From a virus: a stretch of 64,000 nt of DNA. Shown piece after piece: positions 7,502-60,160 of this stretch. The first letter of the stretch is position 1. Each line of letters begins with the position of its first letter. The notes under the pieces were generated by a model. The model saw nothing but the letters and a program-made list of their open reading frames with translations. It was not told the origin of the DNA and did no database searches. The stretch covers positions 4,010 through 68,009 of IMG/VR virus record IMGVR_UViG_3300018432_000290, one strand, 5' to 3'. A program made the position numbers and the translations under genes.

Positions 7502-7924
7502 ATGCGGCGTTACTGGTTGCGCCCTGCCCAGCCCACCACCGAGACGCTGCGCTCCGCGGCGTGGGACCACGTTCTGTTACGACTGGGGGCCGACGCGGCC
7601 GCCATGCGCACCCGGTTGGCCGACCAGGTGGTGGCCGACGAGGCCGCGCGCCGCCGTGTGGCACACGCACGGCACACGACGGTGCTGGCATCTGTGGCAC
7701 ACACGGCCCAGCTGGGGGCCACGGTGGACCGGCTGGACCCCCCACCGGACCCCCCCACGGCCCCCATTCCCGGGCTGCCCCAGCAGCCTCCACCGCCCCC
7801 GGAGACCGCCCGGGACCGCCGGCGCCGGCTGCGTCGCCGGGCCGGGGAGCTGGGCATCACCCAACACGGCAAGACCGACCGCCAGCTCGAGGACGAGATC
7901 GCGGCCCTCGCCGGGGAGTCCTGA
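7502..7924 (+). CDS. Hypothetical protein, first gene of the transfer-like operon
   Basis: GGAGG RBS before MRRYWL; TGATG coupling to next gene; basic helical C-terminus. Confidence 0.6.
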   Translation: MRRYWLRPAQPTTETLRSAAWDHVLLRLGADAAAMRTRLADQVVADEAARRRVAHARHTTVLASVAHTAQLGATVDRLDPPPDPPTAPIPGLPQQPPPPPETARDRRRRLRRRAGELGITQHGKTDRQLEDEIAALAGES

Positions 7925-8313
7925 TGTTGTCCAGGCTGTCCGGGCGCGTGTGGTTCGTGCTGCTGTGCGGGGCGCTGGTGCTGGCGGGTGCCCTGGGGGC
8001 GGCCCTGTGGTTCGCGGCGGTGTTCGCCGTGGAGGTGCTGACCTGGCCCGGGGTGGTCACCCTGCTGGCCGCGGAGGCCTGTGTGGCCGTGGGGGCGGTG
8101 CTGGACTACCGGGAGGCCCGCCTGGAGCCCCCCACCCGGCTGGCAGCCTGGCTGGTGGCCCACTACACGGTGGTGCGCCGCGTGTACCGGCGCGGGCGCT
8201 GGGCCGTGGACGGGGTCAAGGCCCGCCGGCGCGCGGCCACCGCCCGGGCCGCGGCCCAGGCCCGGCGTGACGCCGTCGGTGAGGACCAGCAGCGCGGGCG
8301 GGAGGCCGCGTGA
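7924..8313 (+). CDS. Membrane protein (about 2 TM helices)
   Basis: MLSRLSGRVWFVLLCGALVLAG...; coupled to the T4CP start by GTGA. Confidence 0.7.
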   Translation: MLSRLSGRVWFVLLCGALVLAGALGAALWFAAVFAVEVLTWPGVVTLLAAEACVAVGAVLDYREARLEPPTRLAAWLVAHYTVVRRVYRRGRWAVDGVKARRRAATARAAAQARRDAVGEDQQRGREAA

Positions 8314-9833
8314 CCCTGGCCGTGGCCCTGGTGGCGGTGCTGGTCATCGCCGGGGCCATCGCCTCGGTGCGCGCCGGGGCCGGGCGCCCGCGCGGGCTGG
8401 CCCCGGGGTTCGACCTGGTCAAGACCGTCAGCCTGGCCGCGGCCCGGCGCAAGGCCCTGCACACCCGGCCGGGGCTGACCATCAAGCACCGCCCCACGTG
8501 GCTGGGGGGCACCCCGGCCCGGCAGGTGGGCATCGAGTTGTGCCGGTCCGGGTGGCGCTGGCTGTACGCGTCCCTGGAGGACGTGGTGCTCATCTTCGCC
8601 GAGCCCCGGTCCTGGAAGACCGGGCTGCTGTCGGCCCACGTGGTGGACCTGCCCGGGGGCGGGCTGGGCACCAGCACCCGCACCGACCTGTACCTCAACA
8701 CCGTGGAGCACCGGAAGGACCAGGGCCCGGTGCGGGTGTTCAACCCGGAGGGACTGGGGGCCACCATCGGGGTGCCCAACGACGCCCGGTGGGACATGGT
8801 GCGCGGGTGTGACGCCCCCGCCGAGGCCACCATGCGCGCCGGGTACCTGCTGTCCGGGTCGGCCAGCGGGGACAAGGTGTCCGACCGGGGGTACTGGGAG
8901 AGCAACGCCGGTCGCGCCCTGCGCTACCTGCTGTGTGCCGCGGCCCTGTCCGGGGGCTCCATGCACGAGGTGTACGAGTGGGGCCAGACCCTGTCCCAGC
9001 GGGCCCCGGTCTCCATCCTCAAGACCAACCCCGGGGCCCCGCCCGGCTGGGGGGAGGCCCTGGAGTCCTTGCAGGCCCAGGACCCCAAGCCCAAGGGGTC
9101 CGTGAGCGCCACCCTGACCCTGGCCCTGCAGTTCATGGACATACCGGAGCTGGCGTACGCGGCCACCCCGGGGCCGGGGGACGTCGGGCTGGACGTGCCG
9201 GCGTTCATCCTGGGCGGGGGGTTCCTGTACGTCATCGGCACACAGCGGGAGTACGCCCCCCTCACCCCGCTGTTCTCCGCGCTGGTGGGCCACGTGGTGG
9301 AGACGTGCAAGAAGCTGGCCGGGAGCCGGGGTCGGCTGGACCCTCCGTTCGGCCTGATCCTGGACGAGGTGTACAACACCGCCCGGCTGCCGCTGGCCCG
9401 CATCAGCTCCGAGCTCGGCGGCATCGGCGTCCCCATCGTGTGCGCGTTCCAGGGGCTGGACCAGGCCGAGGAGATGCTGGGCGCGGCCGGGGCCGGGACG
9501 CTGTGGACCAACAGCGCCGTGCGCATGGGGGCCGGGGGCAGCGTGCCCAGCCTGGAGAAGCTGTCCACGCTGCTGGGGCACAAGGCTCAGCGCAACCGGC
9601 GCGGGGAGATCGAGCGTTCCCCCGTGCTCACCGCCAGCGAGATCGACCAGCTGGACCCCGGGAAGGCCGTGGTCTACACGCGCGGCAAACCCACCATCGG
9701 CACGGTGCGCCCCATCTGGGAGCGCCGCACCCCGCGGGCCAAGGCGCCCCACCCCCCCACCGGTCCGCTGGCCCCGGTGTACAGCCTGGACGAGCAGCGC
9801 CGGGCCGGGCCCACCACCGAGGTGGGGTCGTGA
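8310..9833 (+). CDS. VirD4/TraG-like type IV coupling protein
   Basis: N-terminal TM anchor; Walker A-like AEPRSWKT; GPVRVFNPEG, YWESNA, Walker B LILDEVYNTARLP, GIGVPIVCAFQGLDQ, LEKLSTLLG, PVLTASEIDQL match actinobacterial T4CP layout. Confidence 0.85.
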   Translation: MTLAVALVAVLVIAGAIASVRAGAGRPRGLAPGFDLVKTVSLAAARRKALHTRPGLTIKHRPTWLGGTPARQVGIELCRSGWRWLYASLEDVVLIFAEPRSWKTGLLSAHVVDLPGGGLGTSTRTDLYLNTVEHRKDQGPVRVFNPEGLGATIGVPNDARWDMVRGCDAPAEATMRAGYLLSGSASGDKVSDRGYWESNAGRALRYLLCAAALSGGSMHEVYEWGQTLSQRAPVSILKTNPGAPPGWGEALESLQAQDPKPKGSVSATLTLALQFMDIPELAYAATPGPGDVGLDVPAFILGGGFLYVIGTQREYAPLTPLFSALVGHVVETCKKLAGSRGRLDPPFGLILDEVYNTARLPLARISSELGGIGVPIVCAFQGLDQAEEMLGAAGAGTLWTNSAVRMGAGGSVPSLEKLSTLLGHKAQRNRRGEIERSPVLTASEIDQLDPGKAVVYTRGKPTIGTVRPIWERRTPRAKAPHPPTGPLAPVYSLDEQRRAGPTTEVGS

Positions 9834-10018
9834 GGCCCCCGTACCTGGCGCTGCTGCTGCTGGGGGCGGTGCTGGGCAGCTGGGCATGGCAGGTCCCGGC
9901 GTTCGGGGCCATCTTCTGGCCGCTGGTGCTCACGCTGTCGATCTGGCTGTGGGCCGACTACTTCCGCTCGGCGGCACGCCGCCGCCGGCGGGGACACCAC
10001 AGGAGGAGTCATGGCTGA
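9830..10018 (+). CDS. Small two-TM membrane protein
   Basis: GTGA coupling; hydrophobic core and basic tail. Confidence 0.6.
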   Translation: MRPPYLALLLLGAVLGSWAWQVPAFGAIFWPLVLTLSIWLWADYFRSAARRRRRGHHRRSHG

Positions 10019-10187
10019 GGACGGGTTCCTGGCCGCCGTGGGCGGGGCCCTGGTGGCCATCGCCACGCTGGGGATGGTGCGCGAGGACGACGCGGCCCCG
10101 GGCGGTGGGGACGTGGGCACCCCCGTGATGCGCCACCGGGTGGAGTCCCTGGACGGGCGCGACACGGTCGAGGACGGGGTTTCATGA
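10011..10187 (+). CDS. Small membrane-anchored protein (58 aa, below ORF-track cutoff)
   Basis: AGGAGGAG RBS, MAEDGFLAAVGGALVAIATLG, ATGA overlap with next gene. Confidence 0.6.
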   Translation: MAEDGFLAAVGGALVAIATLGMVREDDAAPGGGDVGTPVMRHRVESLDGRDTVEDGVS

Positions 10188-10588
10188 ACGCCGCCCGGTC
10201 CCGCGCCGGTGACCCGGACCAGCTGTCCCTGGACCTCACCGGGGACGGGGACGACGCCCCCACCGTCCACCAGGTGGGCGCGGTGTACGCCATCCGCAAC
10301 CGGCTGGGCATCGGCCACAGCCGCTACCGCCTGGACTGGGTGCACGTCCACCCGCTCAACCACTGGCACAACCCCGGCGGCTACGTCACGTGCGCCCTGA
10401 CCCTGCTGGGTGGGATCGGCGGGGCCATGGTGGGCCCGGAGCACCTGGTCCCCGCCCAGTACGAAGGCCAGAGCACCTGGACCATGAGGAAGCCGGCCCC
10501 CCACCTGGGCACCCACTGCCGCTGGGCCGAGCAGGAGCAGCAGACGGCGGACCGCATCCAGGCCGAGCGCGCGGGGAGCACCCCGTGA
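10184..10588 (+). CDS. Hypothetical protein
   Basis: Coupled at both ends; normal composition. Confidence 0.6.
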   Translation: MNAARSRAGDPDQLSLDLTGDGDDAPTVHQVGAVYAIRNRLGIGHSRYRLDWVHVHPLNHWHNPGGYVTCALTLLGGIGGAMVGPEHLVPAQYEGQSTWTMRKPAPHLGTHCRWAEQEQQTADRIQAERAGSTP

Positions 10589-10860
10589 CCACGTGGGACA
10601 GGGACAGCGCCGCCCCCCACACCCACGTGGGGCTGTTGGGCCAGACGTTCTCCTGCACGTGCTGCTGCCCGGACCCCCCTCCCACCCCCCGCGAGAACCC
10701 GGGCGGGTCCGGCAGCGGGGACGGCAGGGGGTGGCTGGAGGCCGTGGGCACCGCGGTCGCGGTGCTGGGCACGCTGGGGTGGTACCGGGGGGACCCGGAG
10801 CCCCCGCCCGTGCCCGAGCGCGCCGAGCTCGAGCGCGCCGAACCGGAGGACCAGCGGTGA
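10585..10860 (+). CDS. Hypothetical protein with Cys cluster and one TM
   Basis: GTGA overlaps at both ends; CTCCC and hydrophobic AVGTAVAVLGTLGW. Confidence 0.5.
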   Translation: MTTWDRDSAAPHTHVGLLGQTFSCTCCCPDPPPTPRENPGGSGSGDGRGWLEAVGTAVAVLGTLGWYRGDPEPPPVPERAELERAEPEDQR

Positions 10861-11351
10861 GCGGCAACGGGGACCGCCCCGCGGACCGCATGCTGCGCGG
10901 GCGGGTGGATGAGCTGGACCGGGACCTCCAGGTCACCCGCGCGGCGGTCAAGGCGCTGTCGGAGAGCATCACGGCCATGGCCGTCCAGGCCGCGCGGGTG
11001 CGTCCCATCCACTGGCCGGACCTGCCCAACGACCAGCACGCCGCCCGGTACACGGAGCTGCTGGCCTGGATGCGGGAGGTGCTGGTGGAGCGCTACCCGT
11101 TCGACGCGGAAGCCCTCACCCCGTGCTGGTGGCGCCACCCCACGGCCGTGGACCTGCTCACCGCGGCCTGGCAGAGCTGGACGGCGGTGTACCGCAACCC
11201 CGCGGCCAGCGTGGACCGCCAGGTGACGTGGCAGCACACCACGCGCCCCACCACCACGTTCCAGCTACGGCTGGCACTGAGCAACTGTTCCGGGGCCAAG
11301 CACGTGGACGACCCCCACCAGCCGGAGCTGGTCACGGGGGCCTGGGGGTAG
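10857..11351 (+). CDS. DUF4913-like protein
   Basis: Coiled coil then LLAWMREVL..PCWWRHPTAVDLLTAAWQSW, resembling a family seen beside actinobacterial T4CP/relaxase genes. Confidence 0.65.
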   Translation: MSGNGDRPADRMLRGRVDELDRDLQVTRAAVKALSESITAMAVQAARVRPIHWPDLPNDQHAARYTELLAWMREVLVERYPFDAEALTPCWWRHPTAVDLLTAAWQSWTAVYRNPAASVDRQVTWQHTTRPTTTFQLRLALSNCSGAKHVDDPHQPELVTGAWG

Positions 11352-11352: not shown

Positions 11353-11586
11353 TCACACGGTGCGGTCCGTGGGATCCAGGAACACCACCGGCACGGGGGT
11401 GCCCGGCTCGATCAGGGCCACCACCAGCTCCCCGTTCCCGGCCAGGGCCAGCACCTGGTGGCGTCGCTTGCCGTCCGAGCACGGCACCGCCCTGCTGACC
11501 AGGTCCACCACCAGTGCCTGGCCGCCCCACTGGATGGAATCCAGGCAGTGCAGCTGATCAGGCAGCAGGTGGCGGACCGTGGCCAT
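11353..11586 (-). CDS. Hypothetical protein
   Basis: MATVRHLLP start coupled to upstream stop; convergent with the transfer operon. Confidence 0.55.
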   Translation of the reverse strand: MATVRHLLPDQLHCLDSIQWGGQALVVDLVSRAVPCSDGKRRHQVLALAGNGELVVALIEPGTPVPVVFLDPTDRTV

Positions 11587-11912
11587 CAGGCGTCGTCCTC
11601 CTGCTCGGGCACGTGGCCGGACAGGTTGACCGGGCACCCGGGGTTCAGGTCCTCCGCGTCCCGCCACACCCCGTCCCACTCCAGGGCGGCCGAGCAGTGG
11701 TGGCAGGTCCCGGTCAGGGGGTCACCCTCCGGGTTCCACCCCGGCGGCATGTAGGTCAGCCAGAACCGCATCCCCAGTCGGGTGATCTCCGAGAACGCCC
11801 CCCGCACGTCCCCCAGCTCCGTCCGGGCCCGGTCCTCGATCTCCTCCCGCTCGGCCCGGGTGATGCGGGCGCGCGGCATGGGTTCCCGGCGTTCGGTGTC
11901 CCTGGGCATCAC
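11586..11912 (-). CDS. Hypothetical protein with CxxC
   Basis: Protein-like composition; CHHC motif; start uncertain. Confidence 0.55.
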   Translation of the reverse strand: MMPRDTERREPMPRARITRAEREEIEDRARTELGDVRGAFSEITRLGMRFWLTYMPPGWNPEGDPLTGTCHHCSAALEWDGVWRDAEDLNPGCPVNLSGHVPEQEDDA

Positions 11913-12266
11913 CCACCACCTCCTCGAGCGTCCCGGCCAGCCCGCACCGTTCCCACCACACGCGCACCTGGAAGCTGGCCACCACGGCCACCGCCCACGG
12001 CACCACCACCAGCACCAGCCCCAGCCCCAGCGCCACCAGCGCCGACGCCTTGGCCATGTCCGGCATGGTCTCCCTGGGGGAACTCACATCTGCGGCACCG
12101 CGCCCCGTCCGGCCAGGATTGGGTCTCGCGCTGCCAGCGGTCCGGCAACGCCACCAGGCGGATACCGCACTGGGTCCACACCACCCCGGTGGTGATGTGC
12201 CACGGCCCCGGGGTGATGGAGTGCTGGCCGCGGGGGCGCCGGCTGGCGCGCACGTACAGCGTGGGC

Positions 12267-12572
12267 TCAGTGCTGGCCACAGCGCACCTCCGCGACGTCC
12301 GGGGCCCACTGGGGGTCCCAGCCCGGGATGGTGTGGCGGTGTCCGTAGGCCAGCAGGCGCACCACGTGGACCAGCACGTTGGAGTCCGGGTCCCCGGCCG
12401 GCAGCTGGGCGATCCGGCCGGCGCACACCCCGGCGATGGCCTGCTCGGCGGCCACCCGGGCGGTGTCCCGGTCGTCCGCGGCCTCGGTGCCCAGCTCGGT
12501 CAGCGTGTTGTGGACGTCGGCCAGCCAGCACGCCAGCCTGGACGGCACCTGGTACGGCTCACCCCTGGCCAC
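12267..12572 (-). CDS. Hypothetical protein
   Basis: Protein-like composition in a minus-strand gene string. Confidence 0.5.
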   Translation of the reverse strand: MARGEPYQVPSRLACWLADVHNTLTELGTEAADDRDTARVAAEQAIAGVCAGRIAQLPAGDPDSNVLVHVVRLLAYGHRHTIPGWDPQWAPDVAEVRCGQH

Positions 12573-13347
12573 GGCGCACCGCTTCCGGGCAGTCGCTGGC
12601 GTGCTGGCTGGTGCTGGCCCCGCACACGTCGCACGTGGGCATGGTTCGGACCAGCGGCACCCGGTCCCGGTCCCCCGGCATGGTGGGACACATGCCGGGG
12701 GTGGGGCACAGGCAGTCCCGGTCGATGTGGCGGGCCTTGGTCTCGGCCACGTACATGGCCTCGGTGGCGGTGTGGTGCCCCACCCCGCTCATGTACCGGT
12801 GCCCGCCCTCGGTCCAGGCCGTCCAGCCCCAGCGCAGCATGGGACCCCCGGCGCGCACCTCCAGCACGGCACCACCGGCCAGCACCTTGACGTAGCGCTC
12901 CGGGGCGTCCGGGTCGTGGGTGACCGACACCCACTCCGCCCCGCGGATGGCGTCCCCCTGCTGGACGGTCAGGGCCGCCACGCCGGCGCGCAGCCCCAGC
13001 CCCAGTGCCACCGCGTCCGCGATGTGCTCGGCGCTCATCCCGGCGGTGGCCGCGGCGCGCACCGCCTCGGTGATCCCCCCGGCGAGCTCGCCGTCCAGGG
13101 GGTCCGGCAGCTGGCGCCCGAACCCGTCGTGCGTCACCTCCGGGTACCCGTCCGGGTCGTGCCCGCCGTCGTGCCCGGCCGGGCGGTAGCAACCCCACCC
13201 GGAGTCGGTCTGGACACCGCAGCGCTCCACCGCCGGTGGCAGGGCCACGGTGGGCTCGTAGTCCGGCACGGGGCCGGGGTCGTGGTCGTCCAGCGGCGGG
13301 TCCCAGGGGGCCCGGTGGCTGGCGTTGCTCTTGGCGTCGTCGGTCAT
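12559..13347 (-). CDS. Hypothetical Cys/His-rich protein
   Basis: Start motif at 13357-13368; several CxxC and GHDGGH motifs. Confidence 0.6.
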   Translation of the reverse strand: MTDDAKSNASHRAPWDPPLDDHDPGPVPDYEPTVALPPAVERCGVQTDSGWGCYRPAGHDGGHDPDGYPEVTHDGFGRQLPDPLDGELAGGITEAVRAAATAGMSAEHIADAVALGLGLRAGVAALTVQQGDAIRGAEWVSVTHDPDAPERYVKVLAGGAVLEVRAGGPMLRWGWTAWTEGGHRYMSGVGHHTATEAMYVAETKARHIDRDCLCPTPGMCPTMPGDRDRVPLVRTMPTCDVCGASTSQHASDCPEAVRRGQG

Positions 13348-13368
13348 GGGTCGGCTCTCCTCGGTGGT

Positions 13369-13716
13369 TCAGGGCTTGAAGGTCTCGGCGGTGGTGCGCA
13401 CCCACTCCGGGGCGGACTCCCACGGCAACGTCCAGCGGGACTGCTCCCCGTCCTCCGGGTCCGGAGGGGCCCAGGCGATGGTGCCGCTCTCCGGGCCCAT
13501 GCACGTCACGTAGGCGCGGTCCAGGCGCCACTGGACGGCGTCGTACAGGTCCCGCTCGTAGGTGATCGTCAGCAGGTTGGGGGTGATGCGGCGCACCGGG
13601 GCGTTGGGGTCCCGGCCGGTGTCCTGGGCCCGCGGGATGGACATGGTGGGGGCGGCGCGCAGGCGCAGGTACAGGGTGTGCGTCTCCACGCGCCCGTACG
13701 GTTCGGCGATGGTCAT
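13369..13716 (-). CDS. Hypothetical protein
   Basis: MTIAEPYG start after a start-motif variant. Confidence 0.6.
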   Translation of the reverse strand: MTIAEPYGRVETHTLYLRLRAAPTMSIPRAQDTGRDPNAPVRRITPNLLTITYERDLYDAVQWRLDRAYVTCMGPESGTIAWAPPDPEDGEQSRWTLPWESAPEWVRTTAETFKP

Positions 13717-13721
13717 GGGGC

Positions 13722-14108
13722 TCAGCTCTCCTCGGTGATGCGGCGGGGCGCCGGCGTGGGGGTCCACGCGGCGTAGCTGGCGGGCAGCTCCAGCCCCTGG
13801 GGGCTGGCCGTGATGGCCACCCGGGCCTGGGCACACACCTGGCGGCGGGCGCGGCGGCGCGCTCGAGCGCGGCACCACCAGGCCACCACGCGGGCCCAGC
13901 GCTGGGGCCAGGTCAGGGACCCGGCGTGCTGGGCCACGTCCACCACCGCCCGGGCCAGCATCACGGCCCCGGCCACGGCCAGGACGGCCACAGCGGCCAG
14001 CAGGTAGACGACGGCCACGGTGGCGCCCAGCAGCGCGCCGGCGACGGCCACCACCGACACAGCGGCCAGGACGGGTGGACTGGGGCAGTGCTGGGGACAG
14101 TGGGGCAT
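13722..14108 (-). CDS. Membrane protein
   Basis: Start-motif variant; long hydrophobic region. Confidence 0.55.
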   Translation of the reverse strand: MPHCPQHCPSPPVLAAVSVVAVAGALLGATVAVVYLLAAVAVLAVAGAVMLARAVVDVAQHAGSLTWPQRWARVVAWWCRARARRRARRQVCAQARVAITASPQGLELPASYAAWTPTPAPRRITEES

Positions 14109-14111
14109 GGG

Positions 14112-14465
14112 TCAGCTCTCCTCGGTGGGTGGGTCGATCAGGTGCCAGCCGCCCAACAGCCGCTCGGCGATGCGGGCGGCCAGCACGTCCGGATAGGCGT
14201 CCAGGTAGCCCCGGCACGCGCTCTGGCCCAGCTCCGGGTGGGTCCCGTAGCTCAGCGTCATGTGGCAGGTGAGCACCCCACCGGACTGGGGCAGCCCCTC
14301 CAGCTCCGGCAGGCGGATGCCGCGGTTGTGGTCCACCAGCTCCCCCAGGCGCCCCGGACGCAGCCGCATGGGGTTGCCCGGCCGGAACACGCACGTGGCG
14401 CACTTCCGGGCCATGGCCTGGGGTAGTCCGGTGTCCGGGTGGAACACCGGGCCCTGCCCGGTCAT
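14112..14465 (-). CDS. Hypothetical Cys-containing phage protein
   Basis: CATCVFRPGN..LTCH..ACRGY; ATGA coupling. Confidence 0.6.
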   Translation of the reverse strand: MTGQGPVFHPDTGLPQAMARKCATCVFRPGNPMRLRPGRLGELVDHNRGIRLPELEGLPQSGGVLTCHMTLSYGTHPELGQSACRGYLDAYPDVLAARIAERLLGGWHLIDPPTEES

Positions 14466-14662
14466 GCCAGCTCGTCTCGGCGGTAGTCCTTCCACAGGGT
14501 GTCCACGCTCATGGACTGGGTGCGGCGGGACGTCGAACGCTTCACCTGCACGCGGGTGCCGTCGTCGGTCACCTCCACGATGCGCAACCGGCGCCACGTC
14601 TCGCGGCGCCCGTGCCACACCTGGTCCGGCTGGGGGCGGTCCCCCTTGCGGCGAGTGGTCAC
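14462..14662 (-). CDS. Small basic beta-rich protein
   Basis: PDQVWHGRRETWRRLRIVEV; coupled at both ends. Confidence 0.5.
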   Translation of the reverse strand: MTTRRKGDRPQPDQVWHGRRETWRRLRIVEVTDDGTRVQVKRSTSRRTQSMSVDTLWKDYRRDELA

Positions 14663-14831
14663 CGGAACCCCCTCCACTCGTGCGGGACGGGACGACCCTG
14701 CTCGCGCAGCAGGGCGGTCAGGGCGCCGGTTAGCACCGGCCACGCGCGGGCCAGCTCGGCCAGGGCGGCACGGTGGGCCGCCGGGCAGCGTCCGGGGTTC
14801 TCCACCGCGGCCAGGACGCGGGCCACGGCGG

Positions 14832-15377
14832 TCACGACGCCACCGCCCTGCGCAGCTCGGCCAGCCCGCGGGCACACCGGGACTTCACCGTCCCCACCGG
14901 CACCCCCAGCCACACGGCCACGTCCACCTGGGGGACGCCGTCGTGGTGGACCAGCACCACCACGTCCAGGCGGTCCGGGGCCAGTAGCTCGAGGAGCGCG
15001 GTCACGTCCTTGCGGCACTCCACGGTGGCCAGCCCCGGGTCCTCCCGGGCCTCCCGCTCCCCCAGCTCGTCCAGCTGGGCCACCACGCGGGGACGCCTGC
15101 CGAAGGTGCGCAGGTGGGTGTACACCACGCTGGACGTCACGGTGTACAGCCAGGACCGGAACGATGCCCGGCCCGCCCACGTGTGCACGCTGTGCAGCAG
15201 GCGCACCGCCACCTCCTGGGTCATGTCGTCGGCGTCCCGGCTGGCGCGCCCCAGCAGGTGGTGGGCCACGTTGTGCACGTAGCGCTGGTGGCGGGTCCAC
15301 AGCTCGGCGAAGGCGTCGGGGTCCCCGGCGGCGTACGCGGCCACCAGCGCCGCGTCGTCGCGCTCCAGGGGGCTCAC
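14832..15377 (-). CDS. ECF-family RNA polymerase sigma factor
   Basis: DAALVAAYAAGDPDAFAELW, DADDMTQE, FRSWLYTV (region 2); VAVWLGVPVGTVKSRCARG (region 4). Confidence 0.9.
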   Translation of the reverse strand: MSPLERDDAALVAAYAAGDPDAFAELWTRHQRYVHNVAHHLLGRASRDADDMTQEVAVRLLHSVHTWAGRASFRSWLYTVTSSVVYTHLRTFGRRPRVVAQLDELGEREAREDPGLATVECRKDVTALLELLAPDRLDVVVLVHHDGVPQVDVAVWLGVPVGTVKSRCARGLAELRRAVAS

Positions 15378-15673: not shown

Positions 15674-15748
15674 GTCTCTCCTCGGTGGTGGAACGGAGCC
15701 TGGAACCCCGCCGCCCGGGGTCGCCGGGCGACGGGGAGTCTGGCGGGG

Positions 15749-16213: not shown

Positions 16214-16306
16214 GGCTGCTCCTCGGTGGTGGAGTCCTCGACCGTCCTGGCCGGGGGCGCCGTCCCCGGGCCCGTGGCGTGGCGGGTCCGGGGGCGACGC
16301 TCCCGG

Positions 16307-23467: not shown

Positions 23468-23513
23468 GGCGGGTCTCCTCGGTGGTGGAGTGGGTGGAGC
23501 AGGGCCGTGCAGG

Positions 23514-53584: not shown

Positions 53585-53782
53585 TCAACGCCGCCACTCG
53601 GGGATGGTGGTGCGCGTGCCCCGGTTGCCCTCCGGGGTCTCGGGGGGCTGCTCGCGCACCAGCTCCCCCCACCCCCCGGCCACCGCGTCCTGGGCCTGGC
53701 CGGGGGTCATGCGGGCCTCGTCCCCGGCGCTCCAGGAGCCGTCGGGGCGGGACACGTCCCGGGTCACGCGCACCAGCGGCAT
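53585..53782 (-). CDS. Small head-associated hypothetical
   Basis: Position after capsid gene. Confidence 0.55.
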   Translation of the reverse strand: MPLVRVTRDVSRPDGSWSAGDEARMTPGQAQDAVAGGWGELVREQPPETPEGNRGTRTTIPEWRR

Positions 53783-53785
53783 CGG

Positions 53786-54115
53786 TCAGGCGCCCCAGTG
53801 CTCGGGACGGTTCTCGGCCGCGGCCCGCAGCTTGTCGTCGGCGTCCTCGGGCAGCCCGATCACGTCGTACCCCGGGGACTGGTGGGCCTGGCCCGTGGTG
53901 GTGCGGGACACGATGGCCACCCGGTCCGGCTGGGACTGGGCCACCTCGCGGGTGGCACTGGCACCGGACTGCTCCAGGGTGGTGGGCTCGGTCAGGGGGG
54001 CGCGCTTGTCCCCCTGGGTGGACCCCTCCTGACGCTCCGGGTCCGGGGCGTCCCCGGCCGCGGTGGTGCTGGCGGTGGGCTGGTCGGACTGACTGGTGTC
54101 GGCGTGCTGGGCCAT
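53786..54115 (-). CDS. Hypothetical protein
   Basis: GGAGG RBS before MAQHADT. Confidence 0.6.
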   Translation of the reverse strand: MAQHADTSQSDQPTASTTAAGDAPDPERQEGSTQGDKRAPLTEPTTLEQSGASATREVAQSQPDRVAIVSRTTTGQAHQSPGYDVIGLPEDADDKLRAAAENRPEHWGA

Positions 54116-54207: not shown

Positions 54208-55500
54208 CTAGGCCGCGGCGCCGAAGCGCAGCGCCGCCAGGGCCCGGGGGTCGTCCGGCACCGCGTCCATCCGGCTGTACGCGAAGTACCCGGTCTGCAT
54301 GAAGTCCGCGTACCGCTCCCCCAGCCGCACGGCCTGGAACCCCTGCACGATGCGCACCAGGTAGCCGGCGAAGAAGTCCCCGAACACCGCCCCGATGCCG
54401 CCCGGCACGTTGCCGGCCAGGCTGTTGTCCACGAAGTACGGGTGGCCGTTGATGGTGGGGGCGAACCCGGGCACGGGGATGGGCACCCACAGCGGGCGCT
54501 CGTCCCCGTCCTTGAGCTTGCGGGCCAGCTTGAGCATCCCGTCGGACAGCATGTACCGGGTGCGGCTGCCGTTGCGGTAGGCCGGATCGATGCTGTGCTC
54601 CAGGTCGATGAACGCGTCGAAGCTCACCGACGGGGTGGCTCCCACCGCGGTGGTGGCCCCCACGATCAGCGGGTCGGTGCCGGCCCCGATACGGCTGGGG
54701 TGCAGCAGCCCCAGCGGCTGACCCACCCCGGTGCCGGTCAGGAACCGGCGGGCGTAGATCCGGCCGATGCGCTCACCGAACTTGCGCACCAGGAACCCGT
54801 CCAGGTCGAACGCGGCGTCCTGGATGAGGCTCCAGGGCACGCGCACCATCTTGGACGTGTAGATGTGGGCCCCGATCTCGCGGGTCTCGAACACCATGTC
54901 CTGCTCGGGGACCTGGGTGTTCTCCGCGATCTCGATGCCCTCGTTCATGGTGTCGTCACTCATCGGCCAGTTCATGACGGCCCCGGTGCTGGTGACGATC
55001 TGGTTGGCGTACTGGAGCAGCCCGCCGAAGTCCTTCATCACCTCCACCACCTGGTCCCGGTACTCCGGGGGGACCAGGTAGCCACCGGCCTGGGGGGTGC
55101 CCTGGCCCAGCGCGCGGGCCTCCACCTTGTTCTCGGCCAGCAGCCGGCGCTGGTCCGGGGTCAGGGCCGCGTCCACCCCCTGGCCCTCGCGCAGGAACGC
55201 GGAGAACGCGGCCCGGTAGGCCTCCGGGGTGCCCCCCTTCACCTCGAGCTCGGGGTCGGTGTGGGCCGGCACCACGGTGGTGCGGTCGTCGCGCCCGCCC
55301 AGCTTGGCCATCTTCTCGGCCCGGGACAGGGCCTCCAGGTCCTTGTCGATCTGCTCGTTGGCCCGGTTCCAGTTCGCGGTGCCCTCCGCGGACCACCCGT
55401 CGTCGCGGGCGTCCTCGGTGGCCTGAATCTCCTGCATGCGCGTGTAGGTCTCCTGGACCTGCTGGCGCGCGCGCTCCACGGGGGTGTCGCTGTCAGCCAC
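54208..55500 (-). CDS. HK97-family major capsid protein
   Basis: GGYLVP, SLIQDAAFDL, GTGVGQPLGLL, LKDGDERPLW, FGDF, ERYAD. Confidence 0.95.
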   Translation of the reverse strand: MADSDTPVERARQQVQETYTRMQEIQATEDARDDGWSAEGTANWNRANEQIDKDLEALSRAEKMAKLGGRDDRTTVVPAHTDPELEVKGGTPEAYRAAFSAFLREGQGVDAALTPDQRRLLAENKVEARALGQGTPQAGGYLVPPEYRDQVVEVMKDFGGLLQYANQIVTSTGAVMNWPMSDDTMNEGIEIAENTQVPEQDMVFETREIGAHIYTSKMVRVPWSLIQDAAFDLDGFLVRKFGERIGRIYARRFLTGTGVGQPLGLLHPSRIGAGTDPLIVGATTAVGATPSVSFDAFIDLEHSIDPAYRNGSRTRYMLSDGMLKLARKLKDGDERPLWVPIPVPGFAPTINGHPYFVDNSLAGNVPGGIGAVFGDFFAGYLVRIVQGFQAVRLGERYADFMQTGYFAYSRMDAVPDDPRALAALRFGAAA

Positions 55501-55513: not shown

Positions 55514-56467
55514 TCAGGTAGGGATCAGCGCGCGCAGCGAACGCATGCGCGCGTGGGCCCGGTCGGCGTCGGTGGGGGGAGTGGTCTCGGCCGGCTCCCC
55601 GCCGTCGTCGTGGGCCTCGTCCGTCTCACCTGCAGGAGTGGTGTCCACCGGCTCCTCGGTCGGATCGGCACCCGGGGCGGTCCCGGGGGTCTCGGTGCCA
55701 GGCTCGCTGCCTGGCTCGGTGCCCGGCTCTGCCGGGGGGCCGGCGTCGTCGGGGGTGGGGGGACCGGCGGGCTCGGCCGGGGCGGCAGCGTCGCGTGCAG
55801 GAGCCAGCCCGGGACAGAACAGCGACCGGGCCTCCAGCAGGGCACGTCCACCGGTGCGGCGCCCCAGCGCGCTACGCACGGCGGCCACCTCGTCCTCCGC
55901 GCGCACGCGGTCGCGCAGCCCGGCGTCGGTGTCCTCGTACGCGGGGAACGTCACCGCGGACACCTCCACCAGGCGCAGCTCCAGCAGGCGCCGCACCTCC
56001 ACCTCGGCAGAGTTGCCGTCGGACAGCTCCACCTCCTCCGTCCACCACTCGTCCTTGATCACGTAGAACCCGAAGGACATGCCGGTGATGTTCTCGTTGT
56101 CCAGGTTGCGCACCAGGTCGGCCACGTAGGTCACTTCCTGGTCCAGGGCGCTGTCCACGGCCAGCCCGCGGCGGTCCTGGGCCAGCTCCAGCGTGCCGGC
56201 GCTCACCCGGGACACCACGTGGTAGCTGCTGTGGTCGATCAGCATGCGGGCGTCGCCCTCGGCCAGGGTCTTGGTGAAGGCCCCGTCCGCAATCTCCTCG
56301 TAGAACCCCCACGTCAGGGGGTTGCCGATGGCCGTGCGGCTGTTGAACACCGCGGCGTGGCCCTTGAACCGCTGCCCGCCGGCGGGGTCCGCGCGCAGCA
56401 CGATGCCCGCGCTGGCCACGGTGACGCCGCGGCGGTCGCAGGTCGACTCGGGGGTGATGGTGGACAT
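55514..56467 (-). CDS. HK97-family prohead protease
   Basis: FKGHAAVFN, EEIADGAF, GMSFGF, LVEVSAVTFPAYEDT. Confidence 0.95.
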   Translation of the reverse strand: MSTITPESTCDRRGVTVASAGIVLRADPAGGQRFKGHAAVFNSRTAIGNPLTWGFYEEIADGAFTKTLAEGDARMLIDHSSYHVVSRVSAGTLELAQDRRGLAVDSALDQEVTYVADLVRNLDNENITGMSFGFYVIKDEWWTEEVELSDGNSAEVEVRRLLELRLVEVSAVTFPAYEDTDAGLRDRVRAEDEVAAVRSALGRRTGGRALLEARSLFCPGLAPARDAAAPAEPAGPPTPDDAGPPAEPGTEPGSEPGTETPGTAPGADPTEEPVDTTPAGETDEAHDDGGEPAETTPPTDADRAHARMRSLRALIPT

Positions 56468-56479: not shown

Positions 56480-57778
56480 CTACTCGTCGGGGTCGTCGGG
56501 GTCGGGGGCTGGCGCCGGCGACGGCAGGGCAGGTGGGGGTTCCGGTTCCGGTTCGGGGGGCTCGCCGAGCACCCCCATGTTCAGCGGCTGCAACGGCACG
56601 TCCCCGCCCTCGATGGGGGGCAGCCCCTCCATGGCCCGGGCCTCGTTGGCCGTCAACCCGGCCCACTGGCGCATGAACGCGTAGTAGCCCCCTCGAGCGG
56701 CGCTGTCCCCGCGCAGCAGCCGCTCCCGGCGGTACCGGGCCTCCTGGGGGCCGGTGAGCAGGTCCATGCTCACGGCCTGCTCGGTGGGGGTCAGCCACTG
56801 GGGGCCCAGGTCGTAGGTGGAGAACCCGATGGACTGCTGCTCCAGCCCGGTGCCCCAGCTGGTGGACTTCTCGGTCTCGTACAGCAGGAACGGGGGCACC
56901 CCGAACCACCGCCCAATCTCGGGCACCTGGAAGTGGCGGGACTCCAGGAACTGGGCGTCGTCGTTGGGCATGGTCAGGGACTGGAACTCTGCCCCGCTGT
57001 CCAGCACGGCAATGTCGTGGGCGTTCTTCTTGCCCAGCACCTTGTCCCGCCAGCGCTCCTGCAACGTCTCGGCCTGATCTTGCTTGAGCCGCCCCTCGGT
57101 CTTGATGAACCCGCTCAGCAGGTTGCCGGACCCGAACAGCTTGGCCGCGTGGGCCTCCGCGGCCAGCCCCATCCCGATGGCCTGTTTGGCCAGGCTGATG
57201 GGGGACACCCCGGCCACCCCGTCGAACCCCAGGTGCGGCACGTGGAACACCTCACGGCTGGTCCAGTCCCGCCGGTCCCCGTCGTCTCCCAGTACCTCGT
57301 ACACCCGCCCGCTGGGGTTCAGGTCGTTGGGGGTGGCCTGGCCGGGGGTGACCCGGTCCGGGCGGATGGGCCACAGCTCGATGGGGAACCCCACCCGGTT
57401 GCGGATGATCTGGGCGTAGCTGTTGCCCCACAGCGCGCGATGGCAGTACAGGGTGCGCCAGAAGTGGCTGGGGGTCTTGCCCGGGCAAGGGGCGGCCAAC
57501 AGCCGAGCTCCGGGGGTGTTGACCTTGATGGGGTCAAACGTCCCCTTGGTGTAGGCCACCAGCGGCAGCTCCCCGCCCAGCCCCGCGATCAAGGCCACGC
57601 ACCGGTACACGGCGCTCATGGCCAGGGACCCGGTGGGGGTGACGGGCACCCCGGAGTCGTTGGCCATGTCCCCGGCCTTGAACCACTCCAGCAGCTTGGC
57701 CCCGGTCAGCGGGTTGCCGGGGTTGTTCAACCCCCCCAGCCCCACGGCCTCGCGGTGGGCGGAACGGAACAGCGTCAC
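56480..57778 (-). CDS. HK97-family portal protein
   Basis: AVYRCVALIA, LWGNSY, GVSPI, DAQFLESRHF..IGRWFGVPP, TANEARAMEGLPP. Confidence 0.95.
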   Translation of the reverse strand: MTLFRSAHREAVGLGGLNNPGNPLTGAKLLEWFKAGDMANDSGVPVTPTGSLAMSAVYRCVALIAGLGGELPLVAYTKGTFDPIKVNTPGARLLAAPCPGKTPSHFWRTLYCHRALWGNSYAQIIRNRVGFPIELWPIRPDRVTPGQATPNDLNPSGRVYEVLGDDGDRRDWTSREVFHVPHLGFDGVAGVSPISLAKQAIGMGLAAEAHAAKLFGSGNLLSGFIKTEGRLKQDQAETLQERWRDKVLGKKNAHDIAVLDSGAEFQSLTMPNDDAQFLESRHFQVPEIGRWFGVPPFLLYETEKSTSWGTGLEQQSIGFSTYDLGPQWLTPTEQAVSMDLLTGPQEARYRRERLLRGDSAARGGYYAFMRQWAGLTANEARAMEGLPPIEGGDVPLQPLNMGVLGEPPEPEPEPPPALPSPAPAPDPDDPDE

Positions 57779-57994: not shown

Positions 57995-59686
57995 TCACCA
58001 CAGGTTGGGCACCACGGCCGGCTGGGCTGCTCGGCCCTTCCAGGCCCCCACGGCCATGCTGGCCGTGGGCACCCCGTCGATGCGCTTGCCGGTCGCGTGC
58101 CGCTCGGGCTTGTCGGGCCTGATCAGCTCCGGATCGTAGGGGGCGCGCCTGGCCTCGACGTTGTCGAAACACCAGCGGGCCACCGGGTTCCCGTGGTGGC
58201 GTAGACCGTCGGTCACCACCAGGTCCATCAGGGACGTCATGCCCGGGGTCATGGCCGTGTAGGTCTGGGACAGGGTGACGGGCTCCAGCCCGCACCGTTC
58301 CCCGATGGCCTGCACCACCGGGTCCAGGCTCCAGCGGTCCGCGTCCACGCTCAGAATGTCGAAGCGCTCGGCGTCGGCCTCGATGGCCTCGTACACCTTC
58401 TCGTAGTCCAGCACGTTGCCGTCGGTGACCTCGATCCACCCGGCGCGCACCCACCGCAGCACCTTGCCGTCGTTGCGCCTGTCCAGCTCCGGCAGGGCGG
58501 CCTCCGGTAGCCAGAACCGCCACAGCACGTCGCAGGCCAGCTCGTCCTCATCCGGGAACACCAGGCACCAGGCCGTCAGGTCCTGGCGCGCGGCCAGGTC
58601 CAGCCCGGCGTAGCACTCCCGCCCGGTCAGGGCGTCCAGGCGGTAGGCCGGGTCCAGCCAGGGCTCCCCGGGCTGGCGGTCGTACAGGTGCATGGGCATC
58701 CACCGGGTGGCCTGGGCCACCCACTGGTTGAGCCGGTACTGACGGAAGCTGTTCTCCGAGGCCGGGTCGTTCTTGGCCTCGAGCGCTTCCTCCCGCAGGG
58801 CCCGCAAGGACAGGAAGCGCCCCAGCGCGGGGTTGGACAGCTTCCAGTTGCGCTCATCCCACGGGTCCGCGTCCATGGGCACGTTGCGCAGGTAGACGAA
58901 CACGTGAGGAGCGCGGGACGGGTCGTCCTCGATGCGCTGCATCTCGCTGTGCATGCCGGCCGCGAACTTGGCGTCCGTGGTGCCGGCGGTGGTGGCGGCC
59001 ACCATCAGGGGCTGGCGGCGGGCCCCCATGCCGGTGCGCATGGCGTCCCACATGGACCGGTCGCGCCAGGCCAGGATCTCGTCCGCGGCCACCCCGCTGG
59101 GGTTGGACCCCAACGCGCCGGCGGCGTCGGCGGCGATCACGGCGTACACCCCGCCGTGCTTGGCGTCCACGATGCGCCGGTTGTGCTCCTTGACCTGCAA
59201 CCGCTTACGCAGCAGGGGGGACAGCTTGACCATGTCCATGGCCACGTTGAACGCCAGCGCGGCCTGGTCCTTGTCCCGGGCCACCCCGTACAGCTCCGCG
59301 CCGCCCTGGTACTCCCCCACCAGCAGGTACAGCATGATGGCGGCCAGCAGCTCGGTCTTGCCGTTCTTGCGGGCAATCTCGATCCACGCGATGCGGTACT
59401 GGCGCACGTACCCGTGCACGCCGCCCTCGGTGGACCACACCACCCGCCCGAACAGCGGGCGGATGATGTCCCGCCACTGCCAGAGCTCCAGCACGAACGG
59501 GCGTCCGCGCCACGTGTCCTTGGTGTGGACCAGCACCTGCTCGATGAACCCGCGCACGTGGTTGGCCCGCGGATCGCACAGGTGGTCCCCGCGCTTACGG
59601 CAGGTGCGCCCGTCCAGGGCGTACCCGCACTCCGGGAGGCGGGGTGCGGTCTTGCGCCGGCGGCGCGGGGGGGCGGGGGCGGCCAC
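57995..59686 (-). CDS. terL: Terminase large subunit
   Basis: IARKNGKT, ADEI, ATTAG, YAGLDLA, KRIDG. Confidence 0.95.
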   Translation of the reverse strand: MAAPAPPRRRRKTAPRLPECGYALDGRTCRKRGDHLCDPRANHVRGFIEQVLVHTKDTWRGRPFVLELWQWRDIIRPLFGRVVWSTEGGVHGYVRQYRIAWIEIARKNGKTELLAAIMLYLLVGEYQGGAELYGVARDKDQAALAFNVAMDMVKLSPLLRKRLQVKEHNRRIVDAKHGGVYAVIAADAAGALGSNPSGVAADEILAWRDRSMWDAMRTGMGARRQPLMVAATTAGTTDAKFAAGMHSEMQRIEDDPSRAPHVFVYLRNVPMDADPWDERNWKLSNPALGRFLSLRALREEALEAKNDPASENSFRQYRLNQWVAQATRWMPMHLYDRQPGEPWLDPAYRLDALTGRECYAGLDLAARQDLTAWCLVFPDEDELACDVLWRFWLPEAALPELDRRNDGKVLRWVRAGWIEVTDGNVLDYEKVYEAIEADAERFDILSVDADRWSLDPVVQAIGERCGLEPVTLSQTYTAMTPGMTSLMDLVVTDGLRHHGNPVARWCFDNVEARRAPYDPELIRPDKPERHATGKRIDGVPTASMAVGAWKGRAAQPAVVPNLW

Positions 59687-59692
59687 GGTGGC

Positions 59693-60160
59693 CTAGCTCA
59701 GGAACCGCTCGGCCCCTGTGCCGGTGGGGCGCTCGCGGTCCAGCCCCAGCTGGGTGCGCGCGCTGGGCGTCAGCCCGAACTCCCGGGCCAGGATCAGCAG
59801 GGTGTTGGCCGTGTCCCGCTGGATCTGGAGGGCGGGGTTGCGCACGTAGTTGCCGTGCAGACCCTGCACCAGCACCCCGCTGGAGCGCAGCACCGCGCTG
59901 GCCCGGCGGTGCTGGACCACGGCCTCGCAGTAGGCCCGCAGCACCTCCGCGTCCGGGGGTGCCCCCAGCCCCATCCCCTCCAGCTGGGCCACGGTCTTGT
60001 CCCACACGGCCTGCACCTCGTCGGACACGGCCCGGGGCCCGGCGTCCAGCTCCAGGGGCCCCTCCTCGGGCACGGGCTCCTCGGTGGGCACGCGGTCCGG
60101 GCGGGTGCCCTTGAGCAGCTTGAGCGGGGTGGGTTCGGACTTGGGTCCTCGTCGTCCCAT
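59693..60160 (-). CDS. terS: Terminase small subunit (P27 family)
   Basis: GRRGPK.EPT.LKLL.G, YCEA, RNPA, EFGLTPSAR. Confidence 0.92.
   Translation of the reverse strand: MGRRGPKSEPTPLKLLKGTRPDRVPTEEPVPEEGPLELDAGPRAVSDEVQAVWDKTVAQLEGMGLGAPPDAEVLRAYCEAVVQHRRASAVLRSSGVLVQGLHGNYVRNPALQIQRDTANTLLILAREFGLTPSARTQLGLDRERPTGTGAERFLS

Follow-up and report, generated by a model that had tools for sequence, protein, structure and literature searches.

We analysed a window of 64,000 nucleotides (nt), bases 4010-68009 of the 68,009-bp single-contig virus record IMGVR_UViG_3300018432_000290 of IMG/VR; coordinates below are those of the window unless the record is named. It covers the greater part of a 68-kb contig, which comes from an uncultured sipho-like phage with an HK97 capsid, whose putative host is a high-GC soil actinobacterium. 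Besides virion genes, it carries a MobF relaxase and a VirD4-type coupling protein (T4CP). These are encoded in two units on the plus strand, 14.9 kb apart, in agreement with the spacing of about 15 kb given in an earlier note made from the sequence alone. The features of the two units are listed here (ORF, open reading frame; aa, amino acids).

7502-11351, plus strand: T4CP operon (Pfam, hydropathy)
7502-7924, plus strand: g17
7924-8313, plus strand: g18, with two membrane segments (hydropathy)
8310-9833, plus strand: g19, the VirD4-type coupling protein (Pfam)
8598-8621, plus strand: deviant Walker A motif AEPRSWKT of the T4CP, with the tryptophan codon TGG at 8613-8615 (alignment)
9830-10860, plus strand: four small ORFs, two of them (g20, g21) with a transmembrane segment (hydropathy)
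10857-11351, plus strand: g24, DUF4913 (Pfam, 25.5 against a cut-off of 25, barely passing)
25362-25724, plus strand: LuxR/GerE-type helix-turn-helix regulator upstream of the relaxase unit (Pfam GerE, 5.6e-11)
25725-26011, plus strand: candidate origin of transfer (oriT) and promoter region, 287 bp (sequence, repeats)
26012-26254, plus strand: basic protein of 80 aa, its stop overlapping the relaxase start (gene call; no Pfam match)
26251-31041, plus strand: MobF (TrwC-type) relaxase fused to an SF1B helicase, 1,596 aa (Pfam, NCBIfam)
31052-31083, no strand: G+C-rich hairpin with perfect 13-nt arms (31052-31064 and 31071-31083) and a 6-nt loop (repeat search)

The relaxase scored 152.3 bits against Pfam TrwC (cut-off 25) and 142.7 bits against the NCBIfam MobF model NF041492 (cut-off 100), with AAA_30 matched at 7.1e-34. 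All of this lies in a single ORF, which bears out the uninterrupted 1,596-codon MOBF relaxase-helicase that the earlier note had placed at 26251-31041. Its histidine triad (FRHH...LHVHV) aligns with the metal-binding motif of TrwC of R388 (PDB 1OMH), in a match confined to residues 172-311 (E 2.4e-11). When aligned with its 11 nearest homologues, Y13, Y36, H218, H219, H229 and H231 are invariant across the 12 sequences, as are the Walker A (GxGK at 557-560: G557, G559, K560) and Walker B (D637, E638) residues of the helicase. Y13 and Y36 would be the catalytic tyrosines, the alignment with 1OMH stopping short of the N-terminus. The C-terminal tail of about 300 aa is not conserved and is unrelated to TrwC. 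Four perfect 12-nt palindromes GTCACGCGTGAC are found in the coding region of this tail, at 30112-30174, and nowhere else in the window (4 against 0.46 expected); they possibly form a protein-binding array.

As for the neighbours of the relaxase, the GerE match of the regulator starts at profile position 10, so that the true start of this gene may be further upstream. The 80-aa basic protein is, from its position, a possible relaxosome accessory protein. The hairpin separates the stop codons of the relaxase (31041) and of the convergent gene (31101) and is a probable bidirectional terminator; with its perfect arms between convergent stops, it is indeed shared by the relaxase and the lysis and tail side, as had been claimed.

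The region between the regulator and the basic protein contains three intergenic CTAG sites, with a fourth in the preceding stop codon (25721-25772). CTAG occurs 10 times in the window against 54.9 expected, and 4 of the 10 copies are in this short cluster. The same region holds an 11-nt direct (tandem) repeat, a hairpin with 7-nt arms (25729-25746), a 24-nt palindrome (25828-25851) and a sigma-70-like promoter (25942-25969, TTGACC-16-TACAGT). At least three CTAG sites within 630 bp upstream of the relaxase were found in only 3 of 58 relaxase loci, among them L056 and L057 (3 each), which are described below. In a three-sequence alignment, the window, L056 and L057 share a 9-nt core some 70-90 nt ahead of the coding start. 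No common word longer than 12 nt was found between 25700-26011 and L056 or L057 when an oriT was sought by homology. The oriT proposed in the earlier note remains a candidate. The CTAG cluster, the repeats and the hairpin upstream of the relaxase make 25725-26011 the best candidate, but a nic site cannot be named, and nicking in this region is a prediction.

The T4CP matches TraG-D_C with 44.5 bits (cut-off 22) and T4SS-DNA_transf with 23.8 bits (cut-off 20.1) in Pfam, while its NCBIfam match is weak (22.7 against a cut-off of 250). Residues 1-25 are hydrophobic and form an N-terminal membrane segment by hydropathy. The operon of a T4CP with membrane proteins and a DUF4913-like gene, claimed for 7502-11351, was therefore recovered with Pfam and hydropathy, the DUF4913 match lying just above its cut-off. 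Both the relaxase and the T4CP ORFs (4.8 kb and 1.5 kb) are uninterrupted, with a third-position G+C (GC3) of 0.96-0.97, as in the phage genes.

We then considered whether the transfer genes and the phage genes belong to one molecule. Contigs of one public run from Logan, an independent assembly built conservatively, were aligned to positions 14001-34000 of the window.

14001-17886, continuing leftwards: Logan record 1, 12,038 bp, depth 10.5
17858-23162: Logan record 2, 5,305 bp, depth 11.1
23465-33049: Logan record 5, 9,585 bp, 0 mismatches, depth 10.5
33021 onwards: Logan record 8, 13,486 bp, depth 10.3

In Logan record 5, the relaxase is continuous with the regulator region to its left and with three tail-side genes to its right. 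The exact T4CP protein is encoded on the 12,038-bp contig, differing from the IMG version solely in the writing of the GTG start, which links the T4CP operon to the region at 14-17.9 kb. The breaks between contigs fall at about 17.87, 23.2-23.5 and 33.03 kb, and none falls at 7.4, 11.35, 25.7 or 31.07 kb, the junctions at which the earlier note had asked for continuity. At the relaxase junctions (25.7 and 31.07 kb) continuity is direct, as record 5 spans both. For the T4CP junctions (7.4 and 11.35 kb) it was obtained in part: the exact protein lies on the contig that covers 14001-17886, but the contig alignment itself is limited to 14001-34000. Short "joints" in the Logan output, with sides of 20-23 letters, were read as other organisms.

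In terms of composition, the tetranucleotide correlation of each 4-kb segment with the rest of the record ranges from 0.913 to 0.991, the lowest value being in the tape-measure gene. T4CP segments reach 0.984-0.989 and relaxase segments 0.958-0.988, while foreign actinomycete loci, L056 included, reach 0.77-0.84 against the record. Furthermore, a 12-nt start motif with a ribosome-binding site, ACCACCGAGGAG, is present in 18 copies at no more than 1 mismatch against 0.81 expected (504-23486). Of these, 17 are on the minus strand, mostly just ahead of gene starts, at 0.5-7 kb and 13.4-23.5 kb, and at least 9 genes of the 11353-25230 block are preceded by one. The remaining copy, with 1 mismatch, is on the plus strand, 6 nt ahead of an ORF inside the T4CP operon. 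The statement that the same start motif occurs on both sides of this operon is therefore correct. Several copies fall inside gene calls, where the true start may lie later or a nested product may be made.

No match to tyrosine or serine recombinases (PF00589, PF00239) was found in the record. Flanking repeats of at least 11 nt were sought around the T4CP operon, the relaxase unit and the whole 7-31 kb block, and only repeats of 11-13 nt were found, none of 14 nt or more; these were taken as chance matches. A 13-nt direct repeat that flanks the T4CP operon at a distance of 29 nt in front and 31 nt behind was considered as an att site and rejected, with a chance expectation of about 0.4-1 (a rough estimate) and an overlap with the start motif. 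The integrase and att borders that define an integrative and mobilisable element (IME) are thus not seen, as the earlier note had stated, and the coverage breaks or att duplications that it had named as grounds for doubt did not appear, the Logan depth being even (10.3-11.1) and the flanking repeats no longer than 13 nt. These results support the transfer genes as a resident, integrated part of the phage contig, and not a chimera or a bordered insertion. The "stable hybrid" of the earlier note stands in this respect, by contigs, composition, start motif and lack of borders; its spread both as a virion and by cell contact is a prediction.

As for the origin of the transfer genes, the relaxase is 30-33% identical to mobF of sequenced actinomycete plasmids and 43-51% identical to its nearest homologues in a large protein collection. 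We fetched 135 loci, and these contain homologues of five window proteins only: the relaxase (123 loci), the T4CP (33), DUF4913 (28), the sigma factor (1) and the lysin (1). T4CP, DUF4913 and relaxase lie within about 6-8 kb of each other in these loci, and the order T4CP-DUF4913-relaxase is seen in L057, L073 and G015. The locus L056, a 28-kb metagenome contig, encodes a tyrosine recombinase, ParA and a PIN toxin besides its relaxase (50% identical) and T4CP (42%), with no virion gene within 23 kb; a scan of 10 of its 25 ORFs found no VirB4. L057 has a relaxase (43%) and a T4CP (40%), with T4CP, DUF4913 and relaxase in a row.

A maximum-likelihood tree of the relaxase was built with 66 tips: 62 loci with near-full-length matches, the viral contigs G011, G012 and G015, and the window. 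The window groups with L056 with a support of 0.996, and L057 joins them with a support of 1.0. As the relaxase and the T4CP have their nearest relatives in common, the simplest account is a joint acquisition, after which the 14.9 kb of leftward phage-type genes came to lie between them. Judging from this tree and these gene orders, both units appear to descend from a lineage of small actinomycete mobilisable plasmids or IMEs with contiguous T4CP, DUF4913 and relaxase. We counted deviations from conserved relaxase columns in 62 of the 123 loci with a relaxase match, namely those with a match spanning from query residue 45 or less to 1150 or more. The relaxase of the window deviates at 39 of 175 columns, an unexceptional count, compared with 28 of 170 in L056 and 30 of 171 in L057; the median of 4 reflects a dense main clade and not decay of the window's relaxase.

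Next, we looked for such genes in other phages. In PHROGs, neither the relaxase domain nor the T4CP has a family, and the helicase part alone matches Dda-like helicases. A comparison with 50,697 phage records of GenBank gave the relaxase two matches, both to uncultured fragments and covering 13-15% of its length, and gave the T4CP none. Single-protein scans of IMG/VR with the relaxase and with the T4CP returned no match, and a capsid scan only matches of 35% identity or less. The five closest relatives by TerL (G001-G005; 50-65% identical; 60-82 kb) share essentially TerL alone with the window (TerL in 5 of 5, TerS in 2 of 5), besides some short matches in tape-measure, portal or tail proteins.

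A scan of IMG/VR with a profile made from the aligned relaxases was more productive and returned three viral contigs, with TraG-D_C and a tyrosine integrase in none of the three.

G006, 41 kb: HK97 capsid; tail genes and a lysin 51% identical to that of the window, then a convergent relaxase, a layout as in the window
G007, 35 kb: HK97 capsid; SPP1-type portal and serine integrase
G008, 52 kb: no HK97 capsid; tape-measure homologue, Ro60/TROVE and GH81 hydrolase

G007 (L227, L228; 94% complete by CheckV) encodes a large serine recombinase, a MobF relaxase of 1,448 aa, the SPP1-type portal and the HK97 capsid (182-1612, 5766-10112, 16336-17781 and 19285-20214). The MobF relaxase of G008 (L229, L231) is apparently split in two ORFs at the left end, and this contig is possibly in part host DNA, given its Ro60/TROVE and GH81 genes.

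The corresponding scan with the T4CP alignment returned 12 more viral records, with TrwC in 6 of the 12 and Phage_capsid in 4. A tyrosine integrase is present in 4 of 5 viral records with both T4CP and TrwC. In G015 (69 kb), the TrwC, capsid and T4CP families are all present, and contiguous T4CP, DUF4913 and relaxase genes are convergent with a lysin (48%), a tape measure and a portal. G015 combines phage genes, T4CP and relaxase, as an independent lineage with a contiguous module. In the relaxase tree, G006, G011, G012 and G015 group together with a support of 1.0, well away from the window, with G007 elsewhere, and the lineages of the window and G015 meet only at the root of the 66 tips. By this topology, the association of MobF with phages arose at least three times (the window; G006, G011, G012 and G015; G007). 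Finally, capsid homologues were found with 80%, 62% and 59% identity. The last of these (P0170) and a relaxase homologue (P0005, 46%) are each on a 58,030-bp contig with the same two sources, and none of the listed T4CP homologues is on such a contig. From the matching length and sources, this is probably one related phage that keeps the relaxase.

The rest of the window has the gene content of a tailed phage. At high G+C, the 269 ORFs of at least 100 aa are uninformative, and genes were called by GC3, which gave 88 genes in the window and 14 small leftward genes in the preceding 4 kb (no Pfam match in the 8 of these 14 that were searched). G+C is 72-77% all along the record, with a drop to 66% within the tape-measure gene. 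The main features outside the transfer units are listed below.

1-7282, minus strand: leftward early operon of small phage-type genes (GC3 calls, Pfam)
725-1978, minus strand: initiator-like gene, 417 aa, with a Phage_zn_bind_8 zinc finger (Pfam)
2841-3854, minus strand: RecT (Pfam)
3851-4804, minus strand: RecE-like PDDEXK, DUF3799 (Pfam)
7058-7282, minus strand: Cro/Xre-like helix-turn-helix protein (sequence reading by eye; no family match)
7283-7501, no strand: divergent control region between the Cro-like gene and the T4CP operon (repeat search)
11353-25230, minus strand: mostly leftward early and middle genes between the two transfer units, many of them unassigned (Pfam, PHROGs)
14832-15377, minus strand: ECF (extracytoplasmic function) sigma factor (Pfam)
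16307-17341, minus strand: DUF932 / phrog_1221, E 7e-82 (Pfam, PHROGs)
22729-23400, minus strand: nuclease-like gene (Pfam)
31101-53580, minus strand: lysis and tail genes (Pfam)
31101-31826, minus strand: membrane protein
32846-33907, minus strand: tail-repeat protein (Pfam)
34699-35829, minus strand: polysaccharide lyase (Pfam)
36284-36982, minus strand: peptidoglycan-binding lysin (Pfam; homologues 48-53% identical in G006, G011 and G015)
39289-40503, minus strand: S74-chaperone fibre (Pfam)
40500-41675, minus strand: DUF5047 (Pfam)
44145-49154, minus strand: tape measure, 1,669 aa (Pfam)
51768-52205, minus strand: tail terminator (Pfam)
54208-55500, minus strand: HK97 capsid (Pfam)
55514-56467, minus strand: S78 protease (Pfam)
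56480-57778, minus strand: portal (Pfam)
57995-59686, minus strand: TerL (Pfam)
59693-60160, minus strand: TerS (Pfam)
60173-61877, minus strand: 7-deazaguanine-type DNA modification genes, namely FolE (GTP cyclohydrolase I), radical SAM QueE-like and PTPS/QueD (Pfam)

The intact terminase, portal, protease, capsid, tail and lysis genes reported before are all present by Pfam, and the tailed-phage set is complete by family (TerS/TerL, portal, prohead protease, HK97 capsid, tape measure, tail terminator, lysin). Sipho-like morphology is predicted from this set, with no sheath family among the Pfam matches. TerL is 54% identical to that of mycobacteriophages of about 75 kb. Only the T4CP, TerL, a tail protein, the tape measure and the relaxase exceed 500 aa among the gene calls. 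The well-supported plus-strand genes all belong to the T4CP operon or the regulator-relaxase unit, the sole exception being a small gene at 24071-24454. Plus-strand calls at 19100-20700 and 53600-54030 (g40, g41, g76) have an atypical second-position G+C of 0.61-0.74, and g40 and g41 (19.4-20.6 kb) face minus-strand copies of the start motif; the true genes in these two stretches are probably leftward, and the plus-strand calls there are ambiguous. The tRNA scan found none.

A perfect palindrome of 10+1+10 (21 bp) is found at 7430-7450, where the Cro-like gene and the T4CP operon diverge. It is likely an operator, and the phage switch would then also control the transfer operon. Inside the gene at 725-1978, a possible initiator gene, two perfect DnaA boxes, TTATCCACA, lie 60 bp apart at 1551 and 1611 (2 found against 0.06 expected), and this pair may be an origin-like feature. 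Among the proteins scanned, none matched a ParA or Rep family. The ECF sigma factor has one homologue (33%) beside a relaxase, in L004. At the right end, the PTPS/QueD, radical SAM and FolE genes, two unassigned genes and a ParB_N-like gene (60173-63947, minus strand) lead straight into TerS. The ParB_N-like gene (63273-63947) scores 20.5 in Pfam, below the cut-off of 26.3, with a weak NCBIfam parB_part match, and no QueC or DpdA was matched by Pfam or NCBIfam in this modification set.

The description of 7502-60160 as a complete genome is not borne out. The record is linear, has no terminal direct or inverted repeats at the ends of its 68,009 bp, and is 84% complete by CheckV. About 155 bases at its start (L221/G000) are near-pure G, which is probably an artefact of two-colour-chemistry sequencing at an assembly dead end. 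Nor does the phage end at 7502 and 60160, the limits drawn earlier, with further phage genes beyond both (RecT and RecE-like at 2841-4804; 7-deazaguanine genes at 60173-61877; the ParB_N-like gene at 63273-63947).

Taken together, we give a probability of roughly 0.5 to the reading that this phage is mobilisable by conjugation, through the channel of a helper, as well as infectious. In a non-lytic state, lysogenic or plasmid-like, the relaxase would nick the phage DNA at a site upstream of its own gene and stay attached to the 5' end of the nicked strand, and the T4CP would hand the relaxase-DNA complex to the mating channel of a co-resident conjugative element. The two units, the T4CP operon and the regulator-basic protein-relaxase unit with its own promoter, would be of plasmid origin, set on the strand opposite the phage early and late genes. 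They would have been pulled 14.9 kb apart in the phage, and their present match to the phage composition would be the outcome of amelioration. The genes themselves are present, intact, physically linked and of shared ancestry, and from them we infer the nicking, piloting and hand-over.

Several observations weigh against mobilisation. The first is in the T4CP, which departs from the canonical Walker A, GxxxxGK[ST], with a tryptophan at the invariant glycine. P-loop NTPases in general rely on that glycine to bind phosphate. The tryptophan may impair nucleotide binding, and the T4CP may then not pump DNA and may differ from canonical T4CPs. None of the 31 T4CP homologues from the fetched loci has this residue (all end in GK[ST]), and it is found in 1 of 18 database homologues. 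This one, P0122, is a protein of 507 aa, 42% identical, with a PRSWKT P-loop, encoded on a 2,606-bp Logan contig. The tryptophan of the window is also in the independent Logan assembly, and because the same residue occurs in a homologue only 42% identical, it reads as a lineage trait kept across deep divergence rather than as an error or a fresh lesion. P0122 and the window define a small sub-lineage of T4CPs with a tryptophan P-loop. Walker B (LILDE) is present and intact. With deviations at 13 of 62 conserved columns, compared with 18 of 64 in L057, 14 of 62 in L097 and 21 of 67 in L018, the T4CP appears otherwise no more deviant than other divergent members.

The second is the mating channel. 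VirB4/AAA_10 (PF12846) and FtsK/TraB-type (PF01580) had no match in the 68 kb of this record, which is about 84% complete (PF03135, CagE/TrbE/VirB4, was not searched), and the unassigned ORFs are all too small for a VirB4 or FtsK-type gene. The absence of channel genes noted before is thus confirmed for these families. With a relaxase and a T4CP and no channel found, the gene content is that of a mobilisable element; a helper is required in the absence of channel genes, and the element is at most mobilisable, not self-transmissible, on this record.

Other points on the same side concern the record, the oriT and the relatives. IMG/VR classes the record as linear and CheckV places it at about 84%, so it is incomplete, and a single public run holds the window DNA, probably the source run. 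The oriT remains only a candidate, and the 9-nt core shared with L056 and L057 abuts or overlaps the -35 of the promoter-like site and may be regulatory. TrwC is found in none of the five nearest TerL relatives, although these share little else with the window, and its absence there says little on the window's own kin. Lastly, with a T4CP in none of the three contigs found by the relaxase, a relaxase in a phage need not mean conjugation.

This last point leads to the best of the alternatives, which we regard as unlikely: the relaxase-helicase, perhaps with the deviant T4CP, would have been recruited for a non-conjugative phage job, such as rolling-circle-type initiation or processing, relaxase-mediated site-specific recombination in place of an integrase, or interference with plasmid transfer by a non-hydrolysing T4CP. 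An integrase was not found in the record, and the relaxase is beside the lysis cassette, the usual place of the integrase, in the window, G006 and G015. All three viral contigs found by the relaxase have it without a T4CP, the P-loop tryptophan kept between 42%-identical proteins suggests a selected non-canonical activity, and a preprint, in its part on filamentous phage-plasmids, takes their relaxases as replication enzymes. However, replication does not explain why a whole plasmid-type operon (transmembrane proteins, T4CP, DUF4913) is kept, and given the separate origin-like element with DnaA boxes, the relaxase is not required to explain replication. Nor is it a general substitute for an integrase, as 4 of 5 other viral records with T4CP and TrwC have a tyrosine integrase and G007 a serine integrase.

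A little less likely again is that the transfer genes are decaying or neutral cargo from an old phage-plasmid recombination and are now idle. A module split by 14.9 kb, a deviant Walker A in the T4CP and the lack of channel genes would all suit such cargo. Both large ORFs are nevertheless unbroken, at GC3 0.96-0.97, the catalytic residues of the relaxase are intact, the deviations of the T4CP are within the range of divergent members, and its tryptophan variant is common to a 42%-identical homologue. Capsid size limits would also make a useless load of 10 kb costly (PMC12282955).

We find it improbable that the record covers just part of a larger replicon, be it a conjugative plasmid or integrative and conjugative element (ICE) with a prophage or a conjugative phage-plasmid, whose channel genes and perhaps integrase are in the unsampled part. 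The completeness of 84% and the open ends, one of them poly-G, allow for this. However, both ends carry phage-type genes (small early genes on the left, and on the right the DNA-modification genes that run up to TerS) that would join in a normal phage map, 68 kb is typical for this capsid and terminase type (TerL relatives of 60-82 kb), and L056 has no VirB4 in the ORFs scanned.

An assembly chimera, or an IME or ICE freshly inserted in a prophage, is very improbable: the single metagenome source, the many strand switches at 7-31 kb and the 13-nt direct repeat around the T4CP operon would suit it, but the Logan contigs have no mismatches, even depth and breaks away from the named junctions, the composition is uniform, the start motif is on both sides and there is no recombinase.

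Phages and conjugative elements are usually treated as alternative routes of gene transfer. A compact phage with an intact relaxase and T4CP would let one ask whether it can escape from a receptor-bound host range through mating channels, and the independent recurrence of MobF on actinophage contigs suggests selection over accident. More tentatively, soil actinobacterial tailed phages could have repeatedly and independently captured, and long kept, MobF modules with or without a T4CP from small plasmids. These would form a class of dual-route elements, which leave in capsids or as relaxase-piloted single strands through the channel of a neighbour. The tryptophan T4CP of the window would in that case be a nucleotide-independent adaptor that docks the relaxosome on the T4CP or channel of the helper. 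The conserved tryptophan in the P-loop is also a separate small puzzle on how coupling proteins can work.

Among known systems, the small actinomycete MobF plasmids and IMEs (L056; the mobF plasmids of Streptomyces, Pseudonocardia and Amycolatopsis in PLSDB) have the same relaxase and T4CP families as the window, and in L056 and L057 also a CTAG cluster upstream of the relaxase. They carry a tyrosine recombinase, ParA and a PIN toxin, with no virion genes within view, whereas in the window the cluster is split by 14.9 kb in a phage. TrwC of R388 (1OMH) is of the same fold family, with the histidine triad aligned, but the relaxase of the window is longer and has the unrelated tail of about 300 aa.

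Viral contigs of actinophage type in IMG/VR (G006, G007, G011, G012, G015, G016, G017, G020) are similar in having MobF with phage structural genes, and in G006 and G015 the relaxase is likewise convergent with the lysis cassette, with lysins 48-53% identical. They differ from the window in that their relaxases are only 32-34% identical to its own and in separate clades, their modules are contiguous, and 4 of 5 have a tyrosine integrase. Their T4CPs have the canonical P-loop pattern, as far as search patterns alone tell, unlike the tryptophan of the window.

Phage-plasmids (the P1, N15 and SSU5 groups) also combine virion and plasmid-type genes on one replicon. In the part of their paper that deals with this, Pfeifer and Rocha report a relaxase or oriT in only two P1-like phage-plasmids (PMC10879196). 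The corresponding part of Ares-Arroyo et al. reports conjugation elements in six E. coli phage-plasmids of about 175 kb, suspected to be co-integrates or artefacts (PMC10123127). The phage-plasmids with conjugation elements are proteobacterial, while the element of the window is 68 kb and compositionally uniform, and its plasmid replication and partition genes are not established. Phage-ICE tandems, as presented in the main lines of that report (Sci Adv 2026, PMC13651849), move phage and conjugative functions as one unit. These are two bordered elements accreted at an att site under an integrase, in contrast to the window, which has no integrase or borders and whose transfer genes are interleaved with phage genes.

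In the literature covered, no tailed phage with MobF and T4CP is described, and the portion of a 2025 review that bears on this states that no such element is known. Supplementary lists may include comparable cases, namely Table S4 of PMC7969092, which, as its text has it, tabulates 122 phages with plasmid-replication, partition or conjugation (CONJscan) features, and Figure S14 of PMC10123127. The closest described case is the Streptomyces plasmid-phage pZL12/phiZL12 (Zhong et al. 2010), which the passages on it in PMC4487206, PMC3583192 and PMC7157519 present as extrachromosomal, with tra genes and a phage cycle. Compared by description alone, and not by sequence, it resembles the window in being an actinomycete phage with conjugal transfer genes. 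The observation is therefore less unprecedented than the earlier note implied, as other viral contigs carry MobF with or without a T4CP, and pZL12 combines tra genes with a phage cycle.

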